Source of the DNA: Actinomycetota bacterium
GTDB taxonomy: Bacteria > Actinomycetota > UBA4738 > HRBIN12
Assembly (NCBI GenBank): GCA_041287635.1
Contig: JBGGNG010000057.1
Span: 54,062 to 118,061 of the forward strand
DNA: 64,000 nt
Direction of reading: 5' to 3'
Made by a program: the position numbers and the translations under genes. Shown piece by piece: positions 325-20,351 of this stretch. The notes under the pieces were generated by a model that saw only the letters and a program-made list of their open reading frames with translations, made no database searches and had not been told where the DNA came from. Each line of letters begins with the position of its first letter. Position 1 is the stretch's first letter.

Positions 325-1404
325 ATGAGCCGGTTCCGCGTCGATCTGCGTTCGGACACCGTCACGATGCCGTCGCCCGAGATGCGCAAGGCGATGGCGG
401 AGGCCGATGTCGGGGACGCCTGGTACGGCGACGACCCGACCGTGAACCGTCTGCAGGACCTCGCGGCCGAGCGCCTCGGCACGGAAGCCGCGTTCTACGT
501 GCCGACCGGCACGATGGCGAACCAGATCGCGCTGGCCCTGCGCGCGCGAACGGGACACCTCGTGGCGTGCTCGGAGTGGTCGCACGTGGCCACGACCGAG
601 GTGATGACCTCGGCGGCCCTGTCGGGCATCGCCTTCCGTACCGCCGACCCCGGTCCCCGGGGGTGGATCGACGCCGAGATCGCCGGGTCGCTGCTGGAAC
701 CCGACTCCTACTACGACGTCGAGATCGTCGACGTGCTGTCGGTCGAGAACACGCTGGGTGGGGCGGGCGGCCGGGTGATGCCGCTCGAGGAGTTGCAGGC
801 GGTCCGGAAGGTGGCCGACGACGCCGGGGTGCCGGTGCACCTCGACGGCGCCCGGCTCTTCAACGCCGCGACCGCGGCCGGGGTCGACGCCCCCGAGTTC
901 GCGCGCGAGGCCGATACCGTGATGTTCTGCGTCTCCAAGGGACTGGGCGCGCCGATCGGGTCGCTGCTCTGCGGTCCTGCCGATCTGATGCCGGAGGTTC
1001 GGCGACTCTGGATCCTCTTCGGGGGCGCCTGGCGCCAGGCCGGCATCACCGCGGCCGCCGGCATCGTCGCGCTCGAGCGGGGTCCGGGGCGGCTGCACGA
1101 GGACCACGAGCGGGCTCGGCGCCTCGCCGCGGGGGTCGCCGAGCGTCTCCCTGGCTCGATCGATCTCGAACAGGTTGAAACGAACATGGTCCTCGTCGAC
1201 ACGGAAGCGGTGGGACTCGGCATGCTCGAGACGCTCGAGCGGCTGGAGACCCTCGGCGTGGGAGCGACGCACACCGGGAGTCACGTGCGCATGGTGACCC
1301 ACGCCGACGTGAGCGACGACGGTGTCGATGTCGCGCTCGACGCGTGGTCATCCATCGCGGAGGCCGCGTCATCCGAGCGCGCCGCCGGTGCGAAGGAGGA
1401 CTGA
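325..1404 (+). CDS. ltaE: low-specificity L-threonine aldolase (PLP-dependent)
   Basis: 359-aa ORF with N-terminus [32 protein letters not shown]...[10 protein letters not shown], typical of threonine aldolases. Confidence 0.8.
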
Positions 1405-2027
1405 TGGGCTTGTTCACGAAGAACTACCCCCCGGAGATCGCCCCGCGCATCCCGCCGGGCCAGCGCCTCGTGAAGACATGGCCGGTGCTGCACTACGGGC
1501 CGATCCCGAACTTCGACGGCTCGACCTGGGACCTCGACGTCTCCGGCCTCGTGGCGAACCCCTTCCGGCTCGCGTACGAGGAGCTGCGCGCCATGCCGAG
1601 CGTCACCGTCGATGCCGACATGCATTGCGTGACCGGTTGGACGACGCTCGACAACACGTGGGAAGGCGTCCCCTTCCGCGCGATCCTCGAGCGAGCGCAC
1701 CCGGCGCCCGAAGCGAAGTGGGTGATCGCCGAGTGCTCTCACGGCTACACGTCGGATCTCTCGGTCGAGGCGATGAGCGACGACGACGTGCTCCTGGCCT
1801 GGCGCAACCACGGCGAGGACCTCTCGCCCGAGCACGGATGGCCGCTGCGGCTCGTCGTTCCCAAGCGGTACGCATGGAAGAGCGCGAAGTGGCTCACGGG
1901 GCTCCGGTTCAGCGACCGGAACGAGCGGGGCTTCTGGGAGGAGCGCGGCTACCACGTGCACGCCGAGCCGTTCGCGGAGGAGCGCTACAGCTACCAGGAG
2001 GGCCCGAGGGCCGAGCTCGAGCCCTGA
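1404..2027 (+). CDS. sulfite-oxidase-like molybdopterin oxidoreductase (YedY/MsrP-like catalytic domain)
   Basis: ORF 1344..2027 contains an internal ATG at 1404 (MGLFTKNY...) preceded by AAGGAGG and overlapping the ltaE stop; CVTGW molybdopterin-Cys motif and HGWPLRLVVPKRYAWKSAKWL are typical of the Oxidored_molyb fold. Confidence 0.6.
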   Translation: MGLFTKNYPPEIAPRIPPGQRLVKTWPVLHYGPIPNFDGSTWDLDVSGLVANPFRLAYEELRAMPSVTVDADMHCVTGWTTLDNTWEGVPFRAILERAHPAPEAKWVIAECSHGYTSDLSVEAMSDDDVLLAWRNHGEDLSPEHGWPLRLVVPKRYAWKSAKWLTGLRFSDRNERGFWEERGYHVHAEPFAEERYSYQEGPRAELEP

Positions 2028-5761: not shown

Positions 5762-6643
5762 GTGCCCGTGGACCTCGTGTGCGTCGGCGATGTGATGCTC
5801 GACATCAGGGTCGACGCCCAAGCGTTGAAGCGCGGCGGCGACGTACACGGCCGCGTGCTCCTGCAGCCGGGAGGCACCTCGGCGAACGCGGCCGTGTGGG
5901 GGGCGTGGGCCGGCGCGACGACGCGGGTGCTCGGCCGCATCGGCGACGACCTGCCGGGGCGGAACGTGCGGGCGGCGCTCGCCGAACGAGGGGTCGACGC
6001 GGCGCTGACGGCCGATGCCGAGGCAGCCACCGGCACGATGCTCGTGCTCCACGAGCCGGGGGAGCGTTCGATGGTCGCCGATCGCGGAGCGAATGCTCGC
6101 CTCGCGCCCGACGATCTTCCCCCGACGATCGAGGCGGGCGCCGTGCTGGTCTCCGGGTACCTGTTCCTGCAGGACGCCGGCCACGATGCGGCCGTCGCCG
6201 CGCTCGAACGGGCGCGCGCCGGTCTGGTCGCGGTGGAGACGGCGTCCTGGCCGCTGATCGAGGCGTTCGGTCCAGGCCGCTTCTTCGAGGAGACCTCGGC
6301 GGCCACCGTGGTGCTCGCGAACGAGCGCGAGGTCGAGGCGCTCACGGGCCGATCCGGCGTCGATGCCGCGGGAGCGCTCGGCGAGCGCTACCGCGTGGCG
6401 GCGGTGAAGATGGATCGCCGGGGAGCCACCCTCTGCGTGGACGGGCGCGTGCTCACCGCTCCCGCGGAGCCGGTCGACGAGGTCGACCCGACCGGAGCCG
6501 GCGACGCTTTCGACGGAGTGCTGCTCGCGATGCTCTCGTGTGGCGCCGCGCCCGAGGACGCGCTCGCCCACGCGTGCCACGCCGGGGCCCTCGTCGCGGC
6601 GAGCGAGCACGCGTGGCCCGAACTGGGGGCTTCCCGTGACTGA
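5762..6643 (+). CDS. psuK: PfkB-family carbohydrate kinase, probable pseudouridine kinase
   Basis: Ribokinase-fold motifs (VCVGDVMLD..., GGTSANAA, DPTGAGDAF) and an 8-nt overlap with the downstream psuG. Confidence 0.65.
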   Translation: MPVDLVCVGDVMLDIRVDAQALKRGGDVHGRVLLQPGGTSANAAVWGAWAGATTRVLGRIGDDLPGRNVRAALAERGVDAALTADAEAATGTMLVLHEPGERSMVADRGANARLAPDDLPPTIEAGAVLVSGYLFLQDAGHDAAVAALERARAGLVAVETASWPLIEAFGPGRFFEETSAATVVLANEREVEALTGRSGVDAAGALGERYRVAAVKMDRRGATLCVDGRVLTAPAEPVDEVDPTGAGDAFDGVLLAMLSCGAAPEDALAHACHAGALVAASEHAWPELGASRD

Positions 6644-7544
6644 CCCGCTCGTGGTGGCGGACGCGGTCCGCGACGCGCTCGCCGCCGGCGTCGGGGTGGT
6701 GGCCCTCGAGACCAGCGTGATCGGCCAGGGCCTGCCCGCTCCGCGCAACGAGGAGTGCGTGCGGCGCATGAGCTCGGCGATCCGTGAGTCGGGCGGCCTG
6801 CCGGCGTGGATCGGGGTCGTCGACGGGCGTGTGATCGTCGGCCTCGGGGCCGACGAACTCGCGCGCTTCTGCGAGCCGGGGGTCGCCACCAAGGTGGCGC
6901 GGCGTGACCTGCCGGTCGCGGTGGCGGCCCGCGACCTCGGGGCCACGACGGTGAGCGCGACGATCTGGACAGGCTCGAAGGCGGGCATCTTCGTCGGTGC
7001 GACCGGCGGCATCGGAGGCGTGCATCCAGGCGAGGCGCTCGATGTCAGCGCCGACCTGCTCGAGCTCGCACGCACGCCGGGGCTGCTCGTCTGCTCCGGC
7101 CCGAAGTCGATCATCGATCCCGCCGCGACGGCCGAGAAGCTCGAGGAGCTTGGTGTGGCGATCGCCGGCTACGCGGTGGATCGGCTGCCGTTCTTCCTGG
7201 CGAGGGAGGCACCTGTCGAGCTGGAACACCGCGTCGACTCGCCCGCCGAGGCGGCCTCGATGCTCGACGCTGCGCTCGCCCTGGGCACCGGGTCCACCGT
7301 GCTGGTCTGCAACCCGGTGCCGTCGGCGATCGCGATGGATGCCGACGAGGTGGCGGGGGCGGCTCTCGAGGCCGAGCGCCTCGCCGACGAACACGGGGTC
7401 TCCGGGAAGGCGCGCACGCCGTACCTGCTCTCGACGTTGGCCGAGCTGACCGGCGGACGGAGCCTCGAGGCCAACCTCGCCCTGCTCGAGGACAACGCGC
7501 GGGTGGCGGCCGAGATCGCCGTTGCGCGCGCCCGCCGCTCGTGA
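6636..7544 (+). CDS. psuG: pseudouridine-5'-phosphate glycosidase
   Basis: GTG at 6636 in frame with ORF 6540..7544; VVALETSVIGQGLPAPRNEE...WIGVVDGRVIVGL... is typical of PsuG (indigoidine synthase A-like) and it is coupled to the PfkB kinase. Confidence 0.8.
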   Translation: MTDPLVVADAVRDALAAGVGVVALETSVIGQGLPAPRNEECVRRMSSAIRESGGLPAWIGVVDGRVIVGLGADELARFCEPGVATKVARRDLPVAVAARDLGATTVSATIWTGSKAGIFVGATGGIGGVHPGEALDVSADLLELARTPGLLVCSGPKSIIDPAATAEKLEELGVAIAGYAVDRLPFFLAREAPVELEHRVDSPAEAASMLDAALALGTGSTVLVCNPVPSAIAMDADEVAGAALEAERLADEHGVSGKARTPYLLSTLAELTGGRSLEANLALLEDNARVAAEIAVARARRS

Positions 7545-8167
7545 GGGCTCGGGGCGAGCCCAGGACGGTGGCGTTGCGGGCCGGTGCCGCGGGCCCCGTC
7601 GGCTTCCTGGTCGCGGCGTTCGTGCTCGCCGCAGTCCGCGATGACGTGATCGCGTCCCAGGGGTGGGTGAGCTGGCCCAGCAGCATGGCGCTCGGCGGTG
7701 CCGCCGGTCTGCCGATGATCGCGGCGTTCCTCTGGCTCGGCGGGTGCTATGTGGTCTTCGCGCTGGGAGCCCTGCGGCCCGTGGCGCTCTCGACCGTCGC
7801 CGTCTCTGGATACCTCGTCACCGCCGCCGGCGACGTCCTGCTGGCGTTCCCGACCGACGCGGCGGGGGAGGCGACCTCGTGGCACGGCTGGCTCCACCTC
7901 ACCGGTGTGATCCTGGCGACCGTGGGCACCCTGATCGTGGCGGCGGCCCTGCTTGCCGCGACCCGGGGGCGTGCGGCATGGCGACCGTTGCTCCCCGCCG
8001 TGGCCGTGATCGTCACCGCCGCGTTCGTGGGTCTGGCAGGCGGCTTCGACGAGGGGTGGGCGAAGGTCGCCTACGTGGTGGGCATCACGGCGCCCGCCGC
8101 GGTGGTGCCGTGGTGCCTGATCCGTGACCTCGAGGCGCTCGGCGTCGCGGACGCCTTCACTACCTGA
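7541..8167 (+). CDS. hypothetical polytopic membrane protein
   Basis: 208-aa ORF whose GTG overlaps the psuG stop (GTGA); very hydrophobic with ~6 predicted helices. Confidence 0.4.
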   Translation: MRARGEPRTVALRAGAAGPVGFLVAAFVLAAVRDDVIASQGWVSWPSSMALGGAAGLPMIAAFLWLGGCYVVFALGALRPVALSTVAVSGYLVTAAGDVLLAFPTDAAGEATSWHGWLHLTGVILATVGTLIVAAALLAATRGRAAWRPLLPAVAVIVTAAFVGLAGGFDEGWAKVAYVVGITAPAAVVPWCLIRDLEALGVADAFTT

Positions 8168-9212
8168 GCCATGTCTTGCCGATCGCCTTCGAGAAGTGCC
8201 AGGCGTACCGCATGCTCTTCGGCTTCTTCGACTCGCCCCCGCGGCGGGTGAGGAACGTGACCGGCACCTCCACGATGCGGGCGCGCTGCCGCAACGCCTC
8301 GATCGTGATCTCCGAGCTCCAGAACTGATCCTGGACGAGGATCAGCTTGCGCAGCGTCTCGGCGCGCGTGGCGCGGTAGCCGCTCGAGATGTCGGTGATG
8401 CGCTGGCCGGTGAGGATCGTCACGAGCCAGGAGAAGAAGTGCACGCCCGCGTGGCGGATCAACGGCCCCCCTCGCTCGAAGTCGCCGAGCATGCGCGAAC
8501 CGTTCACGTGGTCGGCTCGGTCCTCGACGATCGGGGCGATCAGCACGGGGACCTCCTCCGGCAGGTGCTGGCCGTCGGCGTCGAGCGAGACGACGATGTC
8601 GGCGCCGAGCCGCAGGGCGATGTCGTAGCCCACGCGCAGCGCCATGCCGCCTCCACGCCGGATCGGCAGGGTCGCCGCGAAGGCGCCAGCCACCCGTGCG
8701 GCGTCCGCGGTGCCGTCATCGGAGTGGTCGTCGATCACGATCGGCACCACGTGGTAGCCGGAGACCTCCTTCGGCATCGCCTCGATCACGGCGCCGACGT
8801 TCTCGGCCTCGTTGAAGGCGGGGCAGATCGTGATGACCTTGGGCCCGGGCGGCACGCGACGTTCGATCTCGTCCCAGTCGAACCGCTCGACCGTGAGCGA
8901 CTCCACGAGCTGCCGGATCGCTCGCTCGCTGCGGTCGGCGTGCCCCTGCAGGCGGAACAGCAGCAGGAAGAGCACGACCACGGCGCCGAGCAGCAACGCC
9001 ACGAGCCGCCGGTTGTCGCCCGGCTGGAAGTTGAACGTGTCGAAGACCGGGTCGAACAGGTTCGGGAACGCCGCCAGCACGATCACGGCGATCGACGCGA
9101 CGAACGCCGTGAACAGGCTCAGCCGGCTGATGTTGCGTCGCTGGTAGGAGCGCAACGCCGCGAGGAAGAACGCGGCCGCAGCCACGCCGGCGAGCAGCCG
9201 CAGGGCCCACAT
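8160..9212 (-). CDS. membrane-anchored family-2 glycosyltransferase (DPM1/GtrB-like, polyprenyl-phosphate sugar transferase type)
   Basis: 350-aa protein with a ~100-aa multi-TM N-terminus followed by GT2 motifs (ICPAFNEAENV, IVIDDHSDDGT, VSLDADGQH, SGYRA); its ATG lies 3 nt after the sqdB stop. Confidence 0.75.
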   Translation of the reverse strand: MWALRLLAGVAAAAFFLAALRSYQRRNISRLSLFTAFVASIAVIVLAAFPNLFDPVFDTFNFQPGDNRRLVALLLGAVVVLFLLLFRLQGHADRSERAIRQLVESLTVERFDWDEIERRVPPGPKVITICPAFNEAENVGAVIEAMPKEVSGYHVVPIVIDDHSDDGTADAARVAGAFAATLPIRRGGGMALRVGYDIALRLGADIVVSLDADGQHLPEEVPVLIAPIVEDRADHVNGSRMLGDFERGGPLIRHAGVHFFSWLVTILTGQRITDISSGYRATRAETLRKLILVQDQFWSSEITIEALRQRARIVEVPVTFLTRRGGESKKPKSMRYAWHFSKAIGKTWLR

Positions 9213-9215
9213 GGG

Positions 9216-10400
9216 CTACGAGGCGGTGTCGGCCGTCGCGGTGGCTCCCGCCGCCCAGCGGTCTCGGGGCAGGATGTGGTCGTCGATCACGCGCCCGCGG
9301 TGCCGCTCGATCTCGGCGAAGACCGACTCGATCAACGTCTCGGAGAGCAGGTGCGGCTTGAGTCCGAGGTCGAGCAACTTCGTGTGGGTCGGGTTGTAGT
9401 AGTGCTCCTCGAGCTCGAAGCGGGGGTTGACGATCGGCTCGACGGCGACGTCGATGCCGACCTCCGCTCCCGCCTTCTGCACGAGCTGGGCGAGTTCCAG
9501 GATCGAGAACGACTCGGTGAACTGGTTGAACACCCGCATCTCGCCACGCTCGGCCGGGTGCTCCACCGCGAGCTCGACGCACTGCAGCGTGTCGACGATG
9601 TTCAGGTAGCCGCGGGTCTGTCCCCCCTTGCCGTAGACGGTGAGGGGGTGGCCGATCACCGCCTGCAGGCAGAAGCGGTTCAGCGCGGTGCCGAACACGT
9701 CGTCGTAGTCGAACCGGGTCATCAAACGGTCGTCCAAGCGCGTCTCGTCGGTATGGATCCCGTACACGACGCCTTGGTTCAGGTCGGTGGCCCGCAGGCC
9801 CCACACCCGGCAGGCGAAGTGGATGTTGTGCGAGTCGTGCACCTTCGAGAGGTGGTACATCGAGCCGGGCACCTTCGGGAACGGAAGGTAGTCCTCCCGG
9901 CCGTTGTGGCGGATCTCGATGAACCCTTCCTCGATGTCGATGTTCGGGGTGCCGTACTCGCCCATCGTGCCGAGCTTCACGAGGTGGGCGTCCGGGGTGA
10001 GATCGCGCATCGCGTAGATCACGTTCAACGTGTTCACGACGTTGTTCGTCTGCGTGAACACCGCGTGCTCGCGATCCTTCATCGAGTACGGGGCGCTCGG
10101 CATCTCGCCGTAGTGGACGATGGCCTCGGGCCGGAAGTCGCGGAACAAGCCCTCGGTGACGCTCCAGTCGGTCAGGTCGCCCTCGGTCACGCCGATCTCG
10201 TTGCCGGTGACGTCCTTCCACGCGGCCACACGCCCGGGCAGGTCCGCTGTGATGGGCGTGAGGGAATCGGATCCGGCCTCCTGATGAGCGGTGCGCCGCA
10301 GGTAGTTGTCGACCACGTGCACCTCGTGGCCGCGGCTCGAGAACCGCATCGCGGTCGGCCATCCGAGGTAGCCGTCACCGCCCAGGATCAGGATGCGCAT
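9216..10400 (-). CDS. sqdB: UDP-sulfoquinovose synthase (SQD1/SqdB/Agl3 family, extended SDR)
   Basis: 394 aa; N-terminus MRILILGGDGYLGWPTAMRF... carries the SQD1-type GGDGYxGWP Rossmann motif; full-length collinearity with cyanobacterial SqdB as I recall it (blocks RFDYD, LNRF, PLTVYGKGGQTRG, HFxxQxTES). Confidence 0.8.
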   Translation of the reverse strand: MRILILGGDGYLGWPTAMRFSSRGHEVHVVDNYLRRTAHQEAGSDSLTPITADLPGRVAAWKDVTGNEIGVTEGDLTDWSVTEGLFRDFRPEAIVHYGEMPSAPYSMKDREHAVFTQTNNVVNTLNVIYAMRDLTPDAHLVKLGTMGEYGTPNIDIEEGFIEIRHNGREDYLPFPKVPGSMYHLSKVHDSHNIHFACRVWGLRATDLNQGVVYGIHTDETRLDDRLMTRFDYDDVFGTALNRFCLQAVIGHPLTVYGKGGQTRGYLNIVDTLQCVELAVEHPAERGEMRVFNQFTESFSILELAQLVQKAGAEVGIDVAVEPIVNPRFELEEHYYNPTHTKLLDLGLKPHLLSETLIESVFAEIERHRGRVIDDHILPRDRWAAGATATADTAS

Positions 10401-10538
10401 GTCGTTCCTTTCGAAGGGGAGTCACGCCGGAAGTCGGCCCGATCGTACCAACAGGGCGGGCCTCGAGCCTTCGCGCGCACCCGGCCCGGCACGGGATCGC
10501 CGCAGGTCAGCCGGGCCGCGGGGCACCCCCACGCGCCC

Positions 10539-11792
10539 TCAGGCGAGCTCGGCGAGCGCTCCGAGCACGCGATCGACCTCGTCCGCGGAGTGGTAGTGGC
10601 AGAACCCGATGCGCACCGCCCCGCCCGTGTCGAGCAGGCCGAGCCGGTCGAAGAGCTCGATCGCGTAGTAGTGCCCGTCCCAGACGTAGATGCCGCGGTC
10701 GGCGAGCGCCTTCGCCGTCTCCCGCGGATGACGGTCCCCGATGCGCACGGCGAACGTCGGGGTTCGGTCGTCGAGCCGGTCGAGATCGCCGATGCCGAAC
10801 AGACGCACCCCGTCGATCGCGCCGATCCCTTCGAGGAAGCGCTGCGCGAGCGCACGCTCGTGCGCCCCGACCGCATCGAACGCCGTGACGACCGCGGCGC
10901 GACGGGAAGCGTCGACAGGTCGGCCGTACGTCGTGCCGATGCCGGCCAGGTAGTCGACCGCGGCGGCGAAGCCGGCCATGGCCTCGTGGTTCTGCGTGCC
11001 GGTCTCCCAGCGCTCGGGCGACGGGTAGTGCTCGGCCGGGCGCACGCGGTAGGGGTCCCATCCGTCGAGTACCGCCGGCGTCGCGGCGACCATGCCCAGA
11101 TGCGGCCCGAAGACCTTGTACGGCGAGACGGTCACGATGTCGGCCCCGAGGAGCCCCAGATCGATCGAGCGGTGCTGGGCGACGTGCACGCCGTCGACGG
11201 CGACGATCGCCCCCGCCGCCTTGGCGCGGGCGACGAGGGCGGCGGCCGGGGTCACGGTGCCGACCGCGTTCGAGGCGAGCGTGAACGCCACGAGCGCGGG
11301 TCCGCGCTCCAGCGCCTCGTCGAACGCGTCGATGTCGAGGGTCGCGTCATCGGGCCGAACGTCGACCCAGCGCACGGTCGCACCCGCATCGCGTGTGGCC
11401 AGCACCCATGGGCGCACGTTCGCGTCGTGATCGAGCCTGGTGACGACGACCTCGTCGCCGGGACCGATCGTCCGGGCGAACGACCGCGACAGGTGGAACA
11501 GCAGCGACGTCGAGTTCGCCCCGAACACGATCTGCCGGGGGTCGGCGCCGACGAGATCGGCGCCGGCGCGCCGAGCAGCGGTCACCGTCGCCTCGAGGTC
11601 CTCGCTCGCGGCGAACACCCCGTCCATGTTCGAGATACCGCCTCGGTAGTGACCCTCGACCGCGTCGATCACGGTGTCGGGCACCTGGGATCCGCCCGGC
11701 GCGTCGGCGAAGACCACGTGGCGGCCGTCTTGGGTCCGCGCGAGGGCAGGGAAGCGCGATCGGAGCGCGGAGAGGTCGGGCGAAAGCGTCAT
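10539..11792 (-). CDS. class-V PLP-dependent enzyme, SufS/CsdA-like but lacking the persulfide-forming cysteine
   Basis: 417 aa; PLP-lysine block SPYKVFGPHLGMV, RWETGTQN and C-terminal RIGFCHYHSADEVDRV align to SufS/CsdA; the SufS GHHCA position reads GHYYA; RBS GAAGG upstream. Confidence 0.75.
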   Translation of the reverse strand: MTLSPDLSALRSRFPALARTQDGRHVVFADAPGGSQVPDTVIDAVEGHYRGGISNMDGVFAASEDLEATVTAARRAGADLVGADPRQIVFGANSTSLLFHLSRSFARTIGPGDEVVVTRLDHDANVRPWVLATRDAGATVRWVDVRPDDATLDIDAFDEALERGPALVAFTLASNAVGTVTPAAALVARAKAAGAIVAVDGVHVAQHRSIDLGLLGADIVTVSPYKVFGPHLGMVAATPAVLDGWDPYRVRPAEHYPSPERWETGTQNHEAMAGFAAAVDYLAGIGTTYGRPVDASRRAAVVTAFDAVGAHERALAQRFLEGIGAIDGVRLFGIGDLDRLDDRTPTFAVRIGDRHPRETAKALADRGIYVWDGHYYAIELFDRLGLLDTGGAVRIGFCHYHSADEVDRVLGALAELA

Positions 11793-11901
11793 TGCGCGTT
11801 ACCTTCGCCGGTCGAGGCGCCGCCGACAACCGGTGGGCGGCGGTCCGGACACGCCGAGGGCGCCCACGCGGGGCGCCCTCGGTCGGTGCTGGCGGAAGGT
11901 G

Positions 11902-12768
11902 TCAGACGGAGCGGTTCAGCTCGACTCGCAACCCGTCGGCGGTGAGCGATTCCGTCCTGGCCCGCAGGTCCAGGTACAGCAAGACGCTGATCAGCGCCGA
12001 GAACGGCGCGACGATGATCTGCGCCACGGAGCTGAAGATCCACGACACGAACCAGTTGTCATTGATCGCGGTGCCGATGGCGCCGATGATGCCCGCCACG
12101 ACCGCGGTGATGATGAAGGTCAGCACGATCAACCCGAACGCGTGCCAGAAGTGGCCCTTGACCAGGTTCCACGAGCGCCCCATCGCGTCGGTGCCGCGGC
12201 GGTTCTCGACGACGAGCGCCGGGATCGCGACGGCGAACATCACCGCGAGGAAGATGCCCGGGAGCACGAAGAGGAGGAGGCCGCCCAACACGGCGAGACC
12301 CACGAGGATCGAGATCAGCAGCACGCTGCCGAACCGCGCGAAGCCCCACTTGTACGACGCGTCGATGTCGACGGCGTCGCCGATGCTGCCCTGGGCGGCG
12401 CCCCGCATGATCGCGGCCTGCAGCACCGCGGAGATGATCACGCCGATCACGGCGGCGATCGCCCCGACGAGCAGGGCCGCTCCGGCCGACTGCGTCGTCA
12501 CCTCGATCTCCTGCCCGAAGACCACCTCCGTGGTGGTCTCGGGGGCGAACACGACCCCCCCGAGGAAGGCACTGATGAACGTGAGCGGCACCACGACGAT
12601 CGCGACGATCATCAGCAGGCTCGCGGCGTTCGCCTTGTAGATCTCGAACGCCGTGCTCAGGATCTCCCCGATCCCACGCGGCGGGAGGCCGGGCCCTCCT
12701 GCGCCTCCCTCGCCACCGGGCGGTGGCGGAGGCGGGGGCGGGGTGGTGAAACCACCCGAATCGTCCAT
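11902..12768 (-). CDS. membrane protein with proline-rich N-terminus
   Basis: 288 aa; PPPPPPPPGGEGG N-terminal stretch then ~6 hydrophobic helices; same strand as neighbours. Confidence 0.55.
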   Translation of the reverse strand: MDDSGGFTTPPPPPPPPGGEGGAGGPGLPPRGIGEILSTAFEIYKANAASLLMIVAIVVVPLTFISAFLGGVVFAPETTTEVVFGQEIEVTTQSAGAALLVGAIAAVIGVIISAVLQAAIMRGAAQGSIGDAVDIDASYKWGFARFGSVLLISILVGLAVLGGLLLFVLPGIFLAVMFAVAIPALVVENRRGTDAMGRSWNLVKGHFWHAFGLIVLTFIITAVVAGIIGAIGTAINDNWFVSWIFSSVAQIIVAPFSALISVLLYLDLRARTESLTADGLRVELNRSV

Positions 12769-12848
12769 GATGGATCCCCCTTCTCGACTGAACGGTCGGC
12801 GGCATCCTACGCCCCCCTCCGTCGGGGTGTGGGATGCGGACGTTCACC

Positions 12849-13289
12849 TCAGATGACGTCGTCCGGCAGATCCAGGGGTTCCCACGAGGGATCGGGGCGC
12901 CACGACGGCCAGTCGAGGTCGAACGGGGGTTCGTGCAAGACGATGTGCTCGATCGCGCGTTCCCCCGCCCACCGCACCCCGTGGGCGTCGGCGCGGGTGA
13001 GCAGTCCCCGCTCGACCGCCTCGGCGAGCTCGTGCTCGTCCTTCCATTCGTAGGTGTCGCGTGCGGGCGGGATGCGCACGTCGAGGAACCAGTCGGTGTA
13101 GTCGAACGTGTCGCCGTGTCGACGCAGGGGCGACTGGATGTTCACGTAGTACCCCTCGAACGCCCAGTCGGCGCTCCAGGAGAGCAGGACGGCGTAGGCG
13201 GTCTCGGGGAACGAGAACGACAGGACGGGTCGGTCGCGGACCTTCTGCTCGAGCTCCCACGGTTCCTCCAGGAACCGGACCTCGCCCAT
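12849..13289 (-). CDS. DUF402 (FomD/YgaC-like) protein; true start uncertain
   Basis: C-terminal part of ORF 12849..13811 has the DUF402 hallmark (FEGYYVNIQSP...DYTDWFLDV...WKDEHEL); the only in-frame ATG is at 13289 but homology-like sequence (TVVTLRELWQGRP...) continues upstream to ~13475 with no canonical start, so a non-canonical start or frame error is possible. Confidence 0.45.
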   Translation of the reverse strand: MGEVRFLEEPWELEQKVRDRPVLSFSFPETAYAVLLSWSADWAFEGYYVNIQSPLRRHGDTFDYTDWFLDVRIPPARDTYEWKDEHELAEAVERGLLTRADAHGVRWAGERAIEHIVLHEPPFDLDWPSWRPDPSWEPLDLPDDVI

Positions 13290-13471
13290 GTGACGAGGGT
13301 CGTTCAGCCACCGAGATCCGGGCGCGAGGTAGAAGGACCGGTGGTGATGAGGAAGGTCGTCGACGATGCGGACGGGCCGCAGGGAGGTGGGCCGCCCCTG
13401 CCAGAGCTCCCGGAGCGTGACGACGGTGCCGGGCGAGAGGGGTTCCGCCTCGGGGGCGGTGCCGTCACCGA

Positions 13472-14743
13472 TCAGTCGAGCCGCTCGGCCAGGGCCGTGA
13501 GGATCCGCTCCGCCGCCCAGTCCAGGTCCTCCTCGGTCACGCACAGCGGGGGAGCGAGTCGCACGGTGGTCTCGTGCGTGTCCTTGGCCAACACGCCCAT
13601 GTCGAGCAGGCGCTCGCACGTCTCGCGAGCGGGTGATCCGTCGGGGACCAGCTCGATGCCGACCCAGAGCCCCTTGCCCCGCACCTCCGAGACGACGCCG
13701 GCCGGGGCTCCGGCCCGGAGGCGCTCGATCAGCCGGGCGCCCAGCGTGGCCGCGCGCTCCTGGTACTCGCCGGTGCTCAGCAGACGCAGCACCTCGAGGC
13801 CGATCGCGCATGCGAGCGGGTTCCCCCCGAACGTCGAGCCGTGCTCACCCGGGCGGAAGACCCCGAGCACGTCTCGGTTCGACACGACGGCCGAGATCGG
13901 CACGATGCCGCCACCGAGCGCCTTGCCCAGCACGTAGACGTCCGGACGCACGTCTTCGTGTTCGCACGCGAAGGTGCGTCCGGTGCGACCGAGGCCCGAC
14001 TGCACCTCGTCGGCGATCAACAACACCCGATGCTCGTGGCAGAGCTCGCGGGCGCGCCGCAGGTACCCCTCGGGAGGCACGATGACGCCCGCCTCGCCCT
14101 GGATGGGCTCGACGAGGAAGCCGACGACCTCGGGGTCGGCGAGCGCGATCTCGAGCGCTTCGGCGTCGCCGTAGGCAACGGTCTCGAACCCGGGCGTGAA
14201 CGGCCCGAATCCGCCCTTGGCGCTTGGGTCGGTCGAGAAGCTCACGATCGTGATCGTGCGGCCGTGGAAGTTGCCCGTGCAGGTGACGATCTTGGCGCGA
14301 TCCTCCGGCACGCCCTTCACGTCGTATCCCCACCGTCGTGCGGTCTTCACCGCGGTCTCGACGGCCTCCGCCCCGGAGTTCATGGGCAGGACCATCTCCA
14401 TCTCACAGAGCTCGGCCAGACCCTGGCAGAAGGGCCCCATCTTGTCGTTGTGGAACGCCCGGCTGGTCAGGGTCACCCTGTCGAGCTGGGCGTGCGCGGC
14501 CGCGATGAGATCGGGGTGGCGATGACCGAAGTTGAGGGCCGAGTAGGCCGCCAGCATGTCGAGGTATCGCTTGCCTTCGACGTCGGTGACCCACGCACCG
14601 TCGGCCTCGGCGACGACGAGCGGCAGGGGATGGTAGTTGTGGGCGGAGTAGTGCTCGACGAGCTCGATCTGCTCCTCGGTCGACGTCAGCGGAGCGAAGG
14701 AGCTGAGTTCATTCGGGTCCGCGACGGTCGTCATGGCCAGCAT
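13472..14743 (-). CDS. rocD: ornithine aminotransferase (class-III aminotransferase)
   Basis: 423 aa, near-collinear with Bacillus RocD as recalled (HNYHPLP, LTSRAFHND, FHGRT, ADEVQSGLGRTG, GKALGGG, GSTFGGNPLA). Confidence 0.85.
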   Translation of the reverse strand: MLAMTTVADPNELSSFAPLTSTEEQIELVEHYSAHNYHPLPLVVAEADGAWVTDVEGKRYLDMLAAYSALNFGHRHPDLIAAAHAQLDRVTLTSRAFHNDKMGPFCQGLAELCEMEMVLPMNSGAEAVETAVKTARRWGYDVKGVPEDRAKIVTCTGNFHGRTITIVSFSTDPSAKGGFGPFTPGFETVAYGDAEALEIALADPEVVGFLVEPIQGEAGVIVPPEGYLRRARELCHEHRVLLIADEVQSGLGRTGRTFACEHEDVRPDVYVLGKALGGGIVPISAVVSNRDVLGVFRPGEHGSTFGGNPLACAIGLEVLRLLSTGEYQERAATLGARLIERLRAGAPAGVVSEVRGKGLWVGIELVPDGSPARETCERLLDMGVLAKDTHETTVRLAPPLCVTEEDLDWAAERILTALAERLD

Positions 14744-14775: not shown

Positions 14776-14831
14776 TTGACGGATGTCGCAGGCTGGGCGT
14801 ACATTCATCCTCCGCTCGAACACATGTTCGA
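14776..14831 (+). promoter_or_regulatory. sigma-A-like promoter (TTGACG-18-TACATT) immediately followed by a perfect actinobacterial LexA/SOS box TCGAACACATGTTCGA
   Basis: TTGACG at 14776-14781, TACATT at 14800-14805, 16-bp palindrome TCGAAC-ACAT-GTTCGA at 14816-14831; lies in the divergent region between rocD and the dnaE2 cassette. Confidence 0.6.
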
Positions 14832-14872
14832 TAGAGCTACGCGGTTCACCCGGTGTCTGTGAGGCCCGTCAC

Positions 14873-15118
14873 GTGACGAAACGATTCGACGAGGAGATCA
14901 GTGTCGAACGTGACACCGGCATGCCGAGCGCGTTCGAGTGGCGGGGCAACCGCTACGAGGTCGCCGACGTGATCGGGCGGTGGAAGATCGAGGGCCGGTG
15001 GTGGTCCGACGGCCGCGATCGCGAGTACTGGCGGGTCGAGGCACGCGGCGGCGCGGTCTGGGACCTCTACTTCGACCGGGCCAGGGACCGCTGGCACATG
15101 GAGCGCCTGTGGGACTAG
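14873..15118 (+). CDS. small conserved hypothetical protein (81 aa) heading the SOS-box-fronted cassette
   Basis: GTG at 14873 with GAGG 8 nt upstream; VTKRFDEEISVERDTGMPSAFEWRGNRYEV...GRWWSDGRDREYWRVEARGGAVWDLYFD has a Trp/Arg-rich globular look; the ORF-track N-terminal extension overlaps the SOS box and is unlikely to be translated. Confidence 0.45.
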   Translation: MTKRFDEEISVERDTGMPSAFEWRGNRYEVADVIGRWKIEGRWWSDGRDREYWRVEARGGAVWDLYFDRARDRWHMERLWD

Positions 15119-15142
15119 CGCTCAAGAAGGTAGCGTGGCGAG

Positions 15143-15823
15143 GTGCGCGTCATCCCCTTCCTGGTCTCCGAACTGCGGCTGCCCGATGCGGAGCGGGAGC
15201 TCCTGGGGGTCGAGTGGTGGCCGTCGTACGGGCACGCGGTCGAGCATCCCGAAGGGATCTTCCTGTTCGACAACGGGGCCGGCTACGGCAACGCCGAGAT
15301 CGACGCGACGTTCTCGCCACGAGTCCGCCCGGTCGAGTATGCCCTCGGCGAGGCCGGCATCTCGCTCGCCGACGTGACGGGAGCGGCCAACTGCCACCTG
15401 CACTTCGATCATTGCGGGCAGAACACGCGGCTGCGAGGCATCCCGATCTTCGTACAGCGCACCGAGTGGGCCATGGTGTGCGAACCCGATTACACGGTGC
15501 CCGAGTGGATCGACGTGCCGGGGCTCACGTACGAGCTCCTCGACGGCGAAGCCGAGGTCGCATCCGGCATCCGGCTTGTCCCGACGCCGGGACACACCGC
15601 AGGACACCAGTCGGTGGTCATCGACGCGCCGGGGGGTGCGATCGTGCTCGCCGGCCAGGCGGTGCAGTCTCGCGAGGAGTGGCAGGGAGCCGAGGGTCCC
15701 GACGCATCGGGCCGATCGAGCGCGCCAGACCCCGACGCGTATGCACGATCGGTCGATCGCTTGCGGCTGCTCGACCCGGTCCGCGTGCACTTCGCGCACG
15801 ACCCCTCGATCTGGCAGCGCTGA
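15143..15823 (+). CDS. metallo-beta-lactamase-fold hydrolase
   Basis: 226 aa with HLHFDHCG (HxHxDH) and a downstream His (PGHTAGH). Confidence 0.7.
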   Translation: MRVIPFLVSELRLPDAERELLGVEWWPSYGHAVEHPEGIFLFDNGAGYGNAEIDATFSPRVRPVEYALGEAGISLADVTGAANCHLHFDHCGQNTRLRGIPIFVQRTEWAMVCEPDYTVPEWIDVPGLTYELLDGEAEVASGIRLVPTPGHTAGHQSVVIDAPGGAIVLAGQAVQSREEWQGAEGPDASGRSSAPDPDAYARSVDRLRLLDPVRVHFAHDPSIWQR

Positions 15824-15895
15824 GTGACGTCTCCTCGCTAGGGCACCGACTCGAAGCCTTCCCGGCGGAAGTCGGGATCGAACACGAGTGACGAC

Positions 15896-18800
15896 ATGAC
15901 GGCTCCGTTCGTGCACCTCGACGTTCGGTCGTGCTTCTCCCTGAAGGAAGGTGCGTTCACCACCGAGCAGCTCGCGGCGCGCGCGGCAGCGAACGACATA
16001 CCGGCCGTGGCCATGACCGATCGCGACGGGCTCTACGGCGCCGCGCGGTTCGTGCGGGCGTGCGAGGCCGAGGGCGTGCGGCCGATCCTGGGTGCGTCGA
16101 TCACCGTGCGCGCGAGTGCACCCCCACCGGGTGACGCGCACGTGGTGCTCCTCGCGACCGACGACACGGGGTACGCGAACCTCTGCCGGCTGCTCACCGA
16201 CGCGCACATGCTCGGCGAGCGCGGCGACCCCTGGGTCGACCCGATGCAGATCTGCGCGCACGCAGCGGGGCTCGTCGCGATCGCCGGACCTCGGTCGCAA
16301 CCGGGGCGAGCGGCCGCCCAGGGCCGCGTCGACCACGCCACACGGATGCTCGACCCGTTCCGCGAGGCGTTCGGGCGTGAGCGGCTCTTCGTCGGCGTCG
16401 AGCAGCGGCTCGAACGCGGATCGAACGACGAGACCCGCGCGATGCTGCGCCTCGCCGAGCGGGCCGGCGTCGGCGCCGTCGCGACGAACCCGGTGCGCTA
16501 CCTCGAGCCCGGCGACGCGTTCGTGGCCGACGTGCTCGAGTGCATGCGGCGACTCGTGCCGCTCGCCGAGACGAACGTCACCCGGCGCAACGCCGAGGGC
16601 TGGCTGAAGCCCGCCGCCGAGATGCGCGCGCTCTTCGTCGAGCGCCCCGACCTGTGTGACGCGACGCTCGAGGTCGCCGACATGTGCCGGTTCGACCTGG
16701 GGCTCGGGCGCATCCACTTCCCCGATTTCCCGACGCCGCAGCGCCGCAGCGCCGATGCTGTGCTCGCCGAACGGTGCTGGCGGGGGGTGCACGAACGCGA
16801 GATGCGTGAGGACGAGCGTCTGCGCGACCGGCTGCACCACGAGCTCTCGATGATCCGGCGCATGGGATTCGCGGCGTACTTCCTCACCGTGGCCGACATC
16901 GTCGCCGACGTGAAGGCGATGGGCATCAGGGCCGCGTGCCGGGGGTCGGCCGCCGGATCGCTCGTGTGCTACCTGACGGGCATCTCCGACGTCGACGCGC
17001 TCCGCCACGACCTGTCGTTCGAGCGGTTCATGAATCCGATGCGCAAGGACCTTCCCGACATCGACATCGATGTCGAGTCAGCGAGGCGTGAGGACGTCTA
17101 CGACATGATCCTCGGCCGCCACGGGGAAGAGCGCGCAGGCTGCGTCGCGATGATCGACACGTACCGCGCGCGCTCGGCGATCCGCGAGGTCGGCAAGGCG
17201 CTCGGGCTGCCCGATACCGAGGTCGGTGTCGTCGCGAAGTCGTTCCCGCACATCTCGGCGCGACACCTGCGCGAGGCGATCGAGCGCCTGCCCGAACTGG
17301 CGGACATCAACCTCCGCTTCGAGCAGATGCAACGCCTGATCGGCGTCGCCGAGAGGATCGGCGGCTTCCCGCGACATATCGCGCTGCATCCCTGCGGTAT
17401 CGTGCTCGCGAGCCACGACCTGGTCGAACGCGTACCGCTGGAGCGCAGCGCGAACGGCCATCGCATGATCCAGGCCGACAAGGACGACGTCGAGCTGCTC
17501 GGCTACCTGAAGCTCGACATCCTCGGCGTGCGCATGCTGAGCTCGATGCGACACGCGCTCGACGAGATCGCGCGCACGACGGGGGAGAAGGTCGACCTCG
17601 ACCGCATCGCGCTCGACGACCCCGCCACGTTCGAGCTCGTTCGCGCGTCCGATACGCTCGGGTGCTTCCAGATCGAGTCGCCGGGCCAGCGTGAATTGCT
17701 GCAGAAGCTCCAGCCCGACCGCTGGGAGGACCTGATCGTCGACATCTCGCTGTTCCGGCCCGGGCCGGTGAAGTCCGACATGATCACGCCCTACCTGCGA
17801 CGTCGCTCGGCGTTCGAGCGTCCGACGTATATCCACCCCGGGCTGCGCGGGCCCCTGCAGGAGACGTACGGGGTGATCGTCTTCCACGAGCAGGTGATCA
17901 GGGCGCTCGCCGCGCTCGCCGGCTACACCGAGACCTACGCCGACCACATCCGGCGACATCTCGATCGCGACGACCTGCTGCCGGGCTTCGAGGCCGACTT
18001 CATCGAGCGCGCGGTCGCCCGTGGCGTCGATCGCGATGCGGCCGCCGAGGTCTGGCATGCGGTGACGCAGTTCGCGAGCTTCGGCTTCTGCAAGGCGCAC
18101 GCGGCAGCGTTCGCGGTGCCGACCTACCAGAGCGCGTGGCTGAAGGCGCACCATCCGGCTCACATGTATGCCGGCCTGCTGACCCACGACCCAGGCATGT
18201 ACCCGCGTCGCACGATCCTCGACGACGCCCGCCGTCACGACATCCCGATCCTGGCGCTCGACGTGAACCGCAGCGAGCCGGAGTACGTGGTCGAGGAGGT
18301 CGAAGGACGATGGGGCATCAGGCTCGGGTTCCAGGATGTGCACGGCATCAGCGGCGCCGAGATCCGCTCGATCCTGATGGCGCGCGCCGACCGAGCGTTC
18401 CGCGACGTGGGCGACTTCATGCGGCGCACCACCGTGAGCCGTCCGGTGACCGAGGCGCTGGCGCATGCCGGCGCGTTCGACGCGCTCGAGCCGGCTCGCC
18501 GTCGCCACCTCTACGTGGCGATGACCACCGAGGCCGAGCGCGAGGGTGATCAGCTCACGCTCACGATGGGCGCCGATCCGGCCGAGGGGCACCGGTTCAC
18601 TGACTACTCCGACGCCGAGGTGGTGCGCGCCGAGCTCGAGGTGCTCGGACTCGACGCCACACGGCACATCGTGAGCTTCTACGAGCCGCTCCTCTGCGAC
18701 CTCGGGGTCACGCGCTCGAGGGATCTTCGCTCCGCGCGCGGCGGCTCGAAGGTGATCGTCGCGGGCGTGAAGGTCGCCTCGCAGACCCCGGCGATCCGCA

Positions 18801-19126
18801 GCGGCCAGCGCATCATCTTCCTCACGCTCGACGACGCGACGGGGCCGGTGGAGGTGACGGTGTTCGAGTCGGTGCAGCCCAAGGTGGCGACGACCGTCTT
18901 CCACGGGTACGCGCTCGCGGTCGCGGGCGAGCTCAGACGCACCGGGGTCGGCGGCGTGAGCGTGGTCGCCGAGGAGGTCTGGGATCTGTCGGCGTTGCAT
19001 CGGGCGCGTGCCGAGGGCCGTCTGCGCGAGGCCGTGCGCTGCCAGTCGTGGGACAGGGCGAACTCGACACCCGCCGGCGCCGGGCCGCGCTCGCTCTGGC
19101 ACGCGAGCCCCGGCTCCGCGGGATGA
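15896..19126 (+). CDS. dnaE2: error-prone DNA polymerase DnaE2 (ImuC)
   Basis: 1076 aa; N-terminus VHLDVRSCFSLKEGAFT...AMTDRDGLYGAARF matches the DnaE2 PHP-domain pattern (LHxHSxxSxLDGA...TDHDGLYGAxRF); ImuC-like size, shorter than DnaE1. Confidence 0.85.
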   Translation: MTAPFVHLDVRSCFSLKEGAFTTEQLAARAAANDIPAVAMTDRDGLYGAARFVRACEAEGVRPILGASITVRASAPPPGDAHVVLLATDDTGYANLCRLLTDAHMLGERGDPWVDPMQICAHAAGLVAIAGPRSQPGRAAAQGRVDHATRMLDPFREAFGRERLFVGVEQRLERGSNDETRAMLRLAERAGVGAVATNPVRYLEPGDAFVADVLECMRRLVPLAETNVTRRNAEGWLKPAAEMRALFVERPDLCDATLEVADMCRFDLGLGRIHFPDFPTPQRRSADAVLAERCWRGVHEREMREDERLRDRLHHELSMIRRMGFAAYFLTVADIVADVKAMGIRAACRGSAAGSLVCYLTGISDVDALRHDLSFERFMNPMRKDLPDIDIDVESARREDVYDMILGRHGEERAGCVAMIDTYRARSAIREVGKALGLPDTEVGVVAKSFPHISARHLREAIERLPELADINLRFEQMQRLIGVAERIGGFPRHIALHPCGIVLASHDLVERVPLERSANGHRMIQADKDDVELLGYLKLDILGVRMLSSMRHALDEIARTTGEKVDLDRIALDDPATFELVRASDTLGCFQIESPGQRELLQKLQPDRWEDLIVDISLFRPGPVKSDMITPYLRRRSAFERPTYIHPGLRGPLQETYGVIVFHEQVIRALAALAGYTETYADHIRRHLDRDDLLPGFEADFIERAVARGVDRDAAAEVWHAVTQFASFGFCKAHAAAFAVPTYQSAWLKAHHPAHMYAGLLTHDPGMYPRRTILDDARRHDIPILALDVNRSEPEYVVEEVEGRWGIRLGFQDVHGISGAEIRSILMARADRAFRDVGDFMRRTTVSRPVTEALAHAGAFDALEPARRRHLYVAMTTEAEREGDQLTLTMGADPAEGHRFTDYSDAEVVRAELEVLGLDATRHIVSFYEPLLCDLGVTRSRDLRSARGGSKVIVAGVKVASQTPAIRSGQRIIFLTLDDATGPVEVTVFESVQPKVATTVFHGYALAVAGELRRTGVGGVSVVAEEVWDLSALHRARAEGRLREAVRCQSWDRANSTPAGAGPRSLWHASPGSAG

Positions 19127-19133
19127 TGCTGGG

Positions 19134-20351
19134 ATGACCGGCCGATCACGAGGCCAGGCCTTGCCCGACGAGCGCCCGCCCGAACCGATCCTGCACGCCG
19201 ATCTCGATGCGTTCTACGCCTCGGTCGAGATGCTGAAGGACCCGTCGCTCGCCGGGAAGCCGGTGATCGTCGGTGGCGTGGGCGGCCGTGGGGTCGTGAG
19301 CTCGGCGTCGTACGAGGCCCGCGGGTTCGGCGTGCGCTCGGCGATGCCCACGGTGCGAGCGCGCCGGCTCTGCCCCGACGGCGTTTTCGTGCCACCCGAC
19401 TTCGAGGCGTACCAGGCGCACTCGAACCGGTTCCGCGAGGTGCTGCTCGCCCACACGCCGTTCGTCGAACCGATCTCCCTCGACGAGGCGTTCCTCGACG
19501 TCGGCGGGGCCACGATGCTGTTCGGCGACCCGCGGGTGATCGCCGCGCGCATCCGGGCCGAGGTCGAACGCGAGGTCGGGGTCACGTGCTCGGTCGGGGT
19601 CGCGCCGACGAAGTTCGTGGCCAAGCTCGCCTCCGACCACTGCAAGCCCAACGGGATGCTCGTGGTGCCGGCGGACGGCGTGCTCGGATTCCTCGAGCCG
19701 CTGCCGGTCGGCCGGCTGTGGGGCGTGGGGGAGAAGACCGGCGAGGTGCTCTCGCGTCTGGCGGTGCGCACGATCGGCGACCTCGCCGCGACCCCCGAGC
19801 CGATCCTCGCGCGCCTGCTCGGCGAGCAGCACGCTCGGCATCTGACGCGGCTCGCCCACGGTGTCGACGACCGCCACGTCGTGCCCTACGAGGCGCCGAA
19901 GTCCGTCGGCCACGAGGAGACGTTCGAGGTCGACCTCGACGACGACGAGACCCTCCTGCGCGAGCTCTTGGCGCTCTCGGGGAAGGTGGCGTCGCGGCTG
20001 CGTGCCGACGGATATCGCGCCCGCACCGTGACGATGAAGGTGCGACTGGCGACGTTCACCACGCTCACGCGGTCGAAAACGTCGAACGACCCCACCGACG
20101 TGGGCGCGGATCTCTACCACACGGTCGCCGAGCTCTACCGCGCCCTGCCGGGGGAACGCCGGCGTGTGCGCCTGCTGGGGGTGCAGGCGAGCGGGTTGGT
20201 GTCCGCGGGCGCCGAGCAGCTCGCCCTGCTGCGCGGGGAGCGGTGGGGCGACGTGGAACGGGCCGTCGACCGCATCGAGCATCGGTTCGGGCGTGGCGCG
20301 GCGATGCCCGCCTCGCTGCTCGATCGCTCTCGGCGTGACCGGCCGATCTGA
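19134..20351 (+). CDS. dinB: DNA polymerase IV (Y-family, catalytic residues present)
   Basis: ATG at 19134, 8 nt after the dnaE2 stop; ILHADLDAFYASVEM and SLDEAFLDV catalytic motifs; 405 aa. Confidence 0.85.
   Translation: MTGRSRGQALPDERPPEPILHADLDAFYASVEMLKDPSLAGKPVIVGGVGGRGVVSSASYEARGFGVRSAMPTVRARRLCPDGVFVPPDFEAYQAHSNRFREVLLAHTPFVEPISLDEAFLDVGGATMLFGDPRVIAARIRAEVEREVGVTCSVGVAPTKFVAKLASDHCKPNGMLVVPADGVLGFLEPLPVGRLWGVGEKTGEVLSRLAVRTIGDLAATPEPILARLLGEQHARHLTRLAHGVDDRHVVPYEAPKSVGHEETFEVDLDDDETLLRELLALSGKVASRLRADGYRARTVTMKVRLATFTTLTRSKTSNDPTDVGADLYHTVAELYRALPGERRRVRLLGVQASGLVSAGAEQLALLRGERWGDVERAVDRIEHRFGRGAAMPASLLDRSRRDRPI

Follow-up and report, generated by a model that had tools for sequence, protein, structure and literature searches.

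A predicted sulfoquinovose operon in uncultured soil Actinomycetota, in which sqdB is paired with a DUF2304-GT2 fusion glycosyltransferase

The presence of a gene for a uridine diphosphate (UDP)-sulfoquinovose synthase in an uncultured soil actinobacterium raises the question of what the sugar is made for. Sulfoquinovose (SQ) is, according to reviews up to 2026, a product of phototrophs and a few archaea, and is almost always made as sulfoquinovosyl diacylglycerol (SQDG) (PMC12890257, PMC13436972). The gene, sqdB, lies in a 64-kb stretch of Actinomycetota DNA (contig JBGGNG010000057.1; about 70% G+C), all of which is referred to here as the window. Its stop codon is 3 nucleotides (nt) from the start of a gene for a membrane glycosyltransferase of family GT2, and a gene for a pyridoxal 5'-phosphate (PLP) enzyme lies 138 nt away on its other side. 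An earlier note on this DNA had proposed that these three genes form a self-contained module in which the PLP enzyme supplies sulfite to SqdB; the open reading frame (ORF) coordinates it gave, and the motifs GGDGYLGWP, DDHSDDGT, LDADGQH and GHYYA, were all found in the sequence (Table 1). From the analysis described below, we consider it reasonably probable that the core unit is instead an operon of two genes, with a DUF2304-GT2 fusion downstream of sqdB, and that its product would pass by way of polyprenyl-phosphate (polyprenyl-P)-SQ and a glycosyltransferase of the GT-C fold to an acceptor in the cell envelope.

The sqdB product was compared with characterized UDP-SQ synthases and with family models. 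Residues 2-384 aligned with residues 3-384 of Arabidopsis thaliana SQD1 (1qrr) at 521 bits (E 1.7e-155) and 57.6% identity. The GxxGxxG motif for NAD is present as GGDGYLG, and H96, T145, M146, Y182, H183, K186, Q209 and R327 (SQD1 numbering; roles of the residues from PMC4388408) are kept by the window protein and by every one of 70 relatives. By far the top NCBIfam family was NF041015, that of the UDP-SQ synthases, with 486.3 bits; the next, GalE, reached only 44.6 bits. Its assignment as a UDP-SQ synthase of the SQD1/SqdB/Agl3 type, already made in the earlier note, is secure as judged from sequence comparison.

The partner of sqdB matched family GT2 only, and neither a GT4 nor a GT8 gene was found among the listed genes of the window. 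All significant matches of the protein in NCBIfam and the PDB were polyprenyl-P glycosyltransferases. In NCBIfam these were AglJ (6e-30), PpgS (1e-19), a haloarchaeal dolichyl phosphate (Dol-P)-hexose transferase (1e-17) and ArnC (2e-9), all four below their equivalog cut-offs; the top PDB matches were the dolichyl phosphate mannose synthase (DPMS) of P. furiosus (5mlz; 2e-12, aligned residues 23-235) and ArnC (1e-8). The catalytic part is thus, as had been proposed, that of a membrane GT2 of the polyprenyl-phosphate-sugar-synthase type and not that of SqdX or SqdD. The multi-helix membrane N-terminus described earlier is also real, with three hydrophobic helices that can be read from the sequence, but its identity had been missed: a Pfam scan found DUF2304 (PF10066; 36.4 bits against a cut-off of 25.5) in front of the Glycos_transf_2 domain. 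DUF2304 is known only as the activating partner of undecaprenyl phosphate (Und-P) glycosyltransferases; its members GacJ and Rv3632 are small membrane proteins that bind and strongly stimulate GacI and PpgS, and are occasionally fused to such enzymes (bioRxiv 10.1101/180810). The GT2 of the window is therefore a natural fusion of the GacJ-GacI type. The distribution of charges around the three helices places the catalytic domain, by prediction, on the cytoplasmic side.

Conservation of the pair was examined by a scan of one genome per GTDB species, which returned 581 SqdB relatives. The best 80 loci were analysed, all of them from metagenome-assembled genomes, with SqdB identities to the window protein from 93% down to 67%; pairs were detected by tblastn and by clustering of ORFs within 8 kb of sqdB. 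A GT2 gene was found within this distance in about 73 of the 80 loci, mostly adjacent to sqdB, and the adjacency is kept well beyond the lineage of the window, in Solirubrobacterales and Gaiellaceae among others. Throughout the window's broad lineage, sqdB and the GT2 gene are co-directional with gaps of 1-19 nt. Since the GT2 always has 347-355 amino acids (aa) in these same-strand loci, the DUF2304 fusion appears to be universal in this lineage; the domain was also found in the orthologues of Gaiellaceae and of locus L056. In Solirubrobacterales, the GT2 is 38-43% identical to that of the window, the two genes are divergently oriented, and the neighbours of the pair are unrelated housekeeping genes (gatCB, ndh, ilvB and men genes); in Gaiellaceae and others the pair is co-directional again. 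No other transferase was consistently linked to sqdB in the best 80 loci. Because the linkage outlasts such divergence and rearrangement, it indicates that sqdB and the GT2 gene would act as a functional pair.

Two observations on the GT2 gene in other genomes may be added. In other assemblies of the window's species (L003:11322-12242; L087:17009-18326), a truncated GT2 of 306 aa without DUF2304 is called, and ftsW is split into three ORFs; both are probably frameshift errors of long-read sequencing, and both genes are intact in the window. In the Solirubrobacterales loci (L060-L086; for example, L086:6549-6851), the next gene beside the GT2 gene is consistently one for a protein of about 100 aa with two transmembrane (TM) helices and a zinc ribbon (CPxCG...CxxCG).

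Some of the relatives suggest what may follow the GT2 step. In 13 of the 80 loci (within L007-L086), the pair is adjoined by a gene for a polytopic membrane protein of 580-720 aa. In two loci with homologues of this protein (L089 and L090; 41% and 57% identity), the order is sqdB-GT2-polytopic gene, and the third gene overlaps the stop of the GT2 gene by 4 nt. The family had no match in Pfam or NCBIfam, and a profile search against PDB sequences gave nothing meaningful; its fold emerged only from an AlphaFold2 (AF2) model, built on a 27-sequence alignment (mean predicted local distance difference test score, pLDDT, 83.8; predicted template modelling score, pTM, 0.86), and a Foldseek search with this model. 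The nine top matches in the PDB were all GT-C enzymes, including ArnT (E 6e-6), STT3, AftA, AftD, PglB, ALG9 and ALG12; EmbB and the PMTs ranked just below. The GT-C enzymes matched use polyprenyl-phosphate-linked donors. In the 27-sequence alignment, a nearly invariant Asp (D57) directly follows the first TM helix, which fits the acidic residue that GT-C enzymes typically carry in their first loop. Up to three paralogues of the protein are present per locus, around the operon, and some of these loci also encode a sulfatase lipoprotein of the formylglycine type and an acyltransferase (AT3 or AT3-SGNH). On the modelled fold and the gene order, the relatives thus appear to encode the full logic of an ArnC/ArnT or GacIJ/GacL system, with sqdB as the gene for sugar supply. 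It should be noted that in several loci (L024:1159-2562, L034, L036 and L051; L033:2802-4778; L089:3426-4721) extra envelope genes stand between the PLP gene and sqdB; among their products are additional polytopic proteins, acyltransferases of the AT3 or AT3-SGNH type, and a lipoprotein-type sulfatase that carries the formylglycine motif CxPxR.

The pathway that we propose begins with SqdB, which by homology would supply UDP-SQ. The cytoplasmic GT2 domain, anchored by its built-in GacJ-like module, would then use UDP-SQ as donor and a polyprenyl monophosphate as acceptor to form polyprenyl-P-beta-SQ. Once made, the lipid-linked SQ would be flipped across the membrane, and the GT-C-fold enzyme would pass SQ to an extracytoplasmic acceptor, for which a cell-wall glycopolymer, a lipoglycan or a glycoprotein are candidates. 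The scheme is modelled on ArnC/ArnT, GacI-GacJ/GacL and PpgS-Rv3632/Rv3779. In GacI-GacJ/GacL of Streptococcus pyogenes and PpgS-Rv3632/Rv3779 of M. tuberculosis, a polyprenyl-P glycosyltransferase of family GT2 works with a DUF2304 membrane activator, and fused forms have been reported in some Deltaproteobacteria. In both systems a GT-C enzyme acts outside the membrane, and in the relatives of the window it is likewise a GT-C gene that is coupled to the pair. However, the nucleotide-sugar gene linked here is sqdB and the predicted sugar SQ, where those systems use N-acetylglucosamine or N-acetylgalactosamine; DUF2304 forms the N-terminal part of the GT2 itself; the window contains neither a GT-C nor a flippase gene; and the system here is predicted from its genes. 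ArnC and ArnT (the synthase of Und-P-linked 4-deoxy-4-formamido-L-arabinose, L-Ara4FN, and the lipid A transferase) and GtrA/GtrB/Gtr* of O-antigen glucosylation share the same order of events: a GT2 works on the cytoplasmic face, the monosaccharide becomes lipid-linked, and a GT-C transferase follows. By structure or sequence, ArnC and ArnT rank first or nearly so among the matches of the GT2 and of the GT-C-fold protein. Unlike the enzyme of the window with its N-terminal DUF2304, ArnC and GtrB have C-terminal TM helices, and sugar, acceptor and phylum differ. On homology, fusion and conserved linkage, the sqdB-GT2 system resembles the known pathways of decoration by polyprenyl-P-sugars, and it would differ from them in its sugar, its fused activator and its phylum.

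The known uses of UDP-SQ may also be compared. SqdB-SqdX of cyanobacteria, SQD1-SQD2 of plants and SqdB-SqdD-SqdC of Rhodobacter and Sinorhizobium have an orthologous first enzyme and, as here, join a synthase to a transferase in an operon. Their transferases are a retaining GT4 (SqdX, SQD2) or a GT8 (SqdD), whereas here sqdB is paired with an inverting, polyprenyl-P-type GT2, and the predicted product is therefore a lipid-linked donor and not SQDG. In the Agl3-dependent N-glycans of Sulfolobus acidocaldarius, SQ is likewise used for a cell-surface glycoconjugate by way of an isoprenoid carrier; there, however, it is added to an oligosaccharide linked to dolichyl diphosphate (Dol-PP) by an unidentified transferase, and no Dol-P-SQ or Und-P-SQ intermediate has been described. 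The open-access literature on SQ biosynthesis covers SQDG, as made by phototrophs, by some proteobacteria and by Bacillus coahuilensis, and the Sulfolobus N-glycans; nothing was found in it on sqdB in Actinobacteria, on a polyprenyl-P-SQ intermediate or on SQ in the Gram-positive cell wall. This agrees with the earlier note, which had held an SQ pathway to be undescribed in Actinobacteria, and a lipid-carrier route for SQ should be undescribed as well.

Several points weigh against this proposal. The SqdB score of 486.3 bits is below the NF041015 equivalog cut-off of 575, and at the position of SQD1 R101 (residue 101 of the window SqdB, 10098-10100) Pro is found in 67 of 70 actinobacterial SqdB proteins and Ala in the other 3. 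The sugar specificity of the GT2 is predicted from gene linkage alone. In one Solirubrobacterales orthologue the DUF2304 model scored below threshold, and a single-sequence AF2 model of the window GT2 was unusable (pLDDT 45.8) and was discarded. No GT-C, flippase or acceptor gene was found in the window or, in the nearest relatives, within 8 kb; tblastn of the GT-C, sulfatase and AT3 families against the window gave antisense artefacts only, and a GT-C gene, if present, must therefore lie elsewhere in the genome. Finally, direct glycosylation of diacylglycerol is known for some GT2 enzymes, for example MgdA of cyanobacteria.

This last point leads to the alternative that the GT2 glycosylates a glycerolipid directly, making a sulfolipid of the beta-sulfoquinovosyl diacylglycerol type. 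The enzyme would then be a non-orthologous replacement of SqdX or SqdD, and the lipid would spare membrane phosphorus. SqdB serves SQDG synthesis in all characterized bacteria (PMC13436972), and the missing GT-C gene in the window would fit this explanation too. A Gram-positive precedent is given by B. coahuilensis (PMC4744853), and MgdA of Synechocystis is a known GT2 that glycosylates diacylglycerol (PMC3916417). However, the matches of the window GT2 are confined to families of polyprenyl-P transferases, with none to models of the Glyco_tranf_2_3/GT21 type; DUF2304 has been found only with Und-P glycosyltransferases; and relatives have a GT-C gene downstream, translationally coupled to the GT2 gene. 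We therefore think a direct sulfolipid synthase unlikely. Another alternative, that the GT2 uses an ordinary UDP-sugar (glucose, N-acetylglucosamine or galactose) and leaves UDP-SQ to an unlinked transferase, the linkage to sqdB being irrelevant to its substrate, draws on the facts that sequence does not reveal sugar specificity and that all characterized relatives of this GT2 use non-sulfonated sugars, but we give it very little credence, as the 1-19-nt spacing or the adjacent divergent layout is kept where the GT2s are only 38-43% identical and all other neighbours differ, and as no second transferase is consistently linked to sqdB.

The third alternative is the module of three genes put forward in the earlier note, in which the Cys-less PLP enzyme would release sulfite for SqdB, either as a desulfinase of cysteine sulfinate or as some other organosulfur lyase. 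In work of Mihara and colleagues from 1997, CsdA and SufS are said to desulfinate cysteine sulfinate without the catalytic Cys, which would favour this role. The in vivo sulfur donor of SQD1 and Agl3 is also still regarded as unresolved (PMC4388408). The PLP enzyme of the window passed the cut-off of TIGR01976 (409.7 bits against 352.35), a VC1184-type family with the SufS-like class-V architecture of fold type I and the PLP Lys; the family is distantly related to SufS/CsdA, Rv3778c and UstD. Scores for SufS (199 against a cut-off of 475) and CsdA (112 against 494) were far lower. In a HMMER alignment to M. tuberculosis SufS, GHYYA lies opposite GHHCA, which agrees with the replacement by Tyr of the persulfide-forming Cys that the earlier note had read by eye. 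The only Cys of the protein (C398) is off the loop and its position is not conserved in the family. Lacking the persulfide-forming Cys of SufS and CsdA, the enzyme is, on this alignment, not a cysteine desulfurase. Rv3778c was considered as a functional analogue and rejected, since it is without the PLP Lys that the window enzyme keeps.

Whether the missing Cys is a sign of a special role beside sqdB can be judged from the family as a whole. With 887 clusters at 50% identity in an exhaustive HMMER search (E < 1e-30), the family is large. Tyr stands opposite the SufS Cys in 88 of 110 full-length TIGR01976-type representatives, and a conserved Cys was never found there; the loop without Cys is therefore a trait of the family at large rather than an adaptation of the sqdB locus. 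Across the 110 representatives there is conservation of the PLP Lys, Asp and His and of the Arg that binds carboxylate. These residues are intact in the window enzyme, which is probably active, and an intact active site would also suit the supply of sulfite. Long members of the family are mostly fused to PhyH-type iron/2-oxoglutarate-dependent dioxygenases (8 of 10 examined), with one sulfatase and one cupin fusion. The single sulfatase fusion may be counted for a sulfur-related role, but the recurrent fusion partner is a dioxygenase and not a sulfur enzyme. These fusions are a possible lead to the reaction of the Cys-less TIGR01976-like family.

The linkage of the PLP gene to sqdB differs from that of the GT2 gene. 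In about 45 of the 80 sqdB loci a PLP gene is present at most 8 kb upstream of sqdB, and it remains next to sqdB although the genes on its own upstream side change (Memb, DUF402, LLM oxidoreductase and others), which speaks for the three-gene module. However, all of these loci have an SqdB at least 76% identical to that of the window, and in this lineage a block of 25 kb is syntenic: dnaE2-MBL-DUF6504-(OAT)-DUF402-(Memb)-PLP-sqdB-GT2-IndA-PfkB-...-PknB. In sister lineages (loci L052-L057, L083 and L028), the downstream synteny is kept without the PLP gene, and the sqdB-GT2 loci of Solirubrobacterales and Gaiellaceae are also without it. A metagenome scan seeded with distant members of the PLP family yielded 80 loci, half of which (40) exceeded 8 kb in length; in none of the 80 was sqdB or the GT2 gene present within 7 kb, and no common neighbour was dominant. 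The adjacency of the PLP gene and sqdB is thus compatible with a single historical event followed by synteny.

The spacer between the two genes also argues against a common unit. In 8 orthologous spacers, a TAnnAT box some 40 nt ahead of the sqdB start is invariant, as is the ribosome-binding site (RBS) GAAAGGA, and the rest is unalignable; because only these two elements are invariant in otherwise unalignable spacers, they suggest that sqdB-GT2 may have its own promoter. A simple-consensus scan of 7400-13600 found no sigma-70-type promoter and no intrinsic terminator, and the predicted RNA fold of the spacer was no better than that of shuffled sequences (z = 0.92). The window also has no cysteine dioxygenase gene. 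Taken with its family-wide Tyr, these comparisons make the PLP enzyme appear an ordinary member of a widespread, naturally Cys-less family; a role in sulfite supply is unsupported, and we judge the three-gene module decidedly unlikely. If, in this actinobacterial lineage, the TIGR01976 enzyme did feed sulfite to SqdB, a self-contained route would turn organosulfur compounds into UDP-SQ, polyprenyl-P-SQ and finally an envelope glycan; a UDP-SQ synthase would have an in vivo sulfur donor identified, and a large orphan PLP family would gain a function. As it stands, the Cys-less trait is a family property that carries no functional signal on the sqdB locus.

The positions of the features discussed are given in Table 1. 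The real genes between 8.1 and 14.8 kb are all on the minus strand and have a G+C content at third codon positions (GC3) of 0.91-0.96; a plus-strand ORF of 1273 aa (8124-11945) was rejected as an antisense artefact of high G+C content. The Pro-rich membrane protein gene, 109 nt upstream of the PLP gene, and the DUF402 gene had been thought perhaps to belong to the unit. There is no evidence for this; together with OAT, they were rejected as members, since they are linked by lineage synteny only.

Table 1. Features of the sqdB locus in the window, with related examples from other loci and from the PLP family
Feature	Position or example	Strand	Length or basis
sqdB, UDP-sulfoquinovose synthase (SQD1/SqdB/Agl3 type, extended SDR)	9216-10400	minus	394 aa
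Fused DUF2304-GT2 membrane glycosyltransferase; predicted polyprenyl-phosphate sulfoquinovosyltransferase	8160-9212	minus	350 aa
DUF2304 (GacJ/Rv3632-like) three-helix membrane module, GT2 residues 4-106	8895-9203	minus	Pfam PF10066
GT-A catalytic domain, GT2 residues ~124-333, with DDHSDDGT and LDADGQH (DxD)	8214-8843	minus	alignment to DPMS 5mlz and ArnC
PLP-sqdB intergenic spacer	10401-10538	minus	-10-like box TACGAT 10442-10447; RBS GAAAGGA 10406-10412
TIGR01976 'cysteine desulfurase-like' class-V PLP enzyme	10539-11792	minus	417 aa
Pro-rich membrane protein	11902-12768	minus	
DUF402 gene	real start ~13289	minus	
Polytopic GT-C-fold family, examples in other loci	L034:10220-12187; L089:7001-8812; L090:7001-8932		
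PhyH-PLP fusions	P0268, P0282, P0312, P0340, P0359, P0370, P0377, P0389		
Sulfatase-PLP fusion	P0327		
PLP-Cupin_2 fusion	P0341		

The remaining genes of the window are housekeeping genes, among them genes for pseudouridine catabolism, PknB, a dnaE2/imuB cassette and the dcw cluster, and an Rfam scan of the window gave no matches. Beyond the GT2 gene, a plus-strand gene (7541-8167) for a polytopic membrane protein of 208 aa with a weak DUF998 match is convergent with it and overlaps its 3' end by 8 nt; this gene is kept only in the closest relatives. The pseudouridine catabolism pair follows (5762-7544, plus strand), a PfkB kinase and an Indigoidine_A protein (pseudouridine-5'-phosphate glycosidase), and is kept in about 25-30 related loci. 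Some 6 kb beyond the GT2 gene, a 207-aa molybdoenzyme of the sulfite-oxidase fold (Pfam Oxidored_molyb; about 1404-2027, plus strand) stands beside a Beta_elim_lyase PLP enzyme (325-1404, plus strand), and both are syntenic in the lineage. On the other side, upstream of the OAT gene, a DUF6504-MBL-DnaE2-Y-family (IMS/ImuB-like) cassette (14783-20351) resembles an SOS mutasome; a second, replicative DnaE is encoded at 51280-54864. A complete dcw cluster (mraZ, rsmH, ftsI, murE, murF, mraY, murD, ftsW ... ftsQ, ftsZ, sepF) occupies about 26.9-43.7 kb, and the SQ operon is therefore placed in the conserved chromosomal core.

If the two-gene operon acts by way of polyprenyl-P-SQ, as we propose, a new lipid-linked sugar donor would be added to those known, and Gram-positive bacteria would be predicted to have sulfonated, permanently anionic envelope glycans. 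The prediction is that abundant soil Actinomycetota make both polyprenyl-P-SQ and such glycans, and these organisms would then be a non-phototrophic source of SQ in the sulfur cycle of soils.

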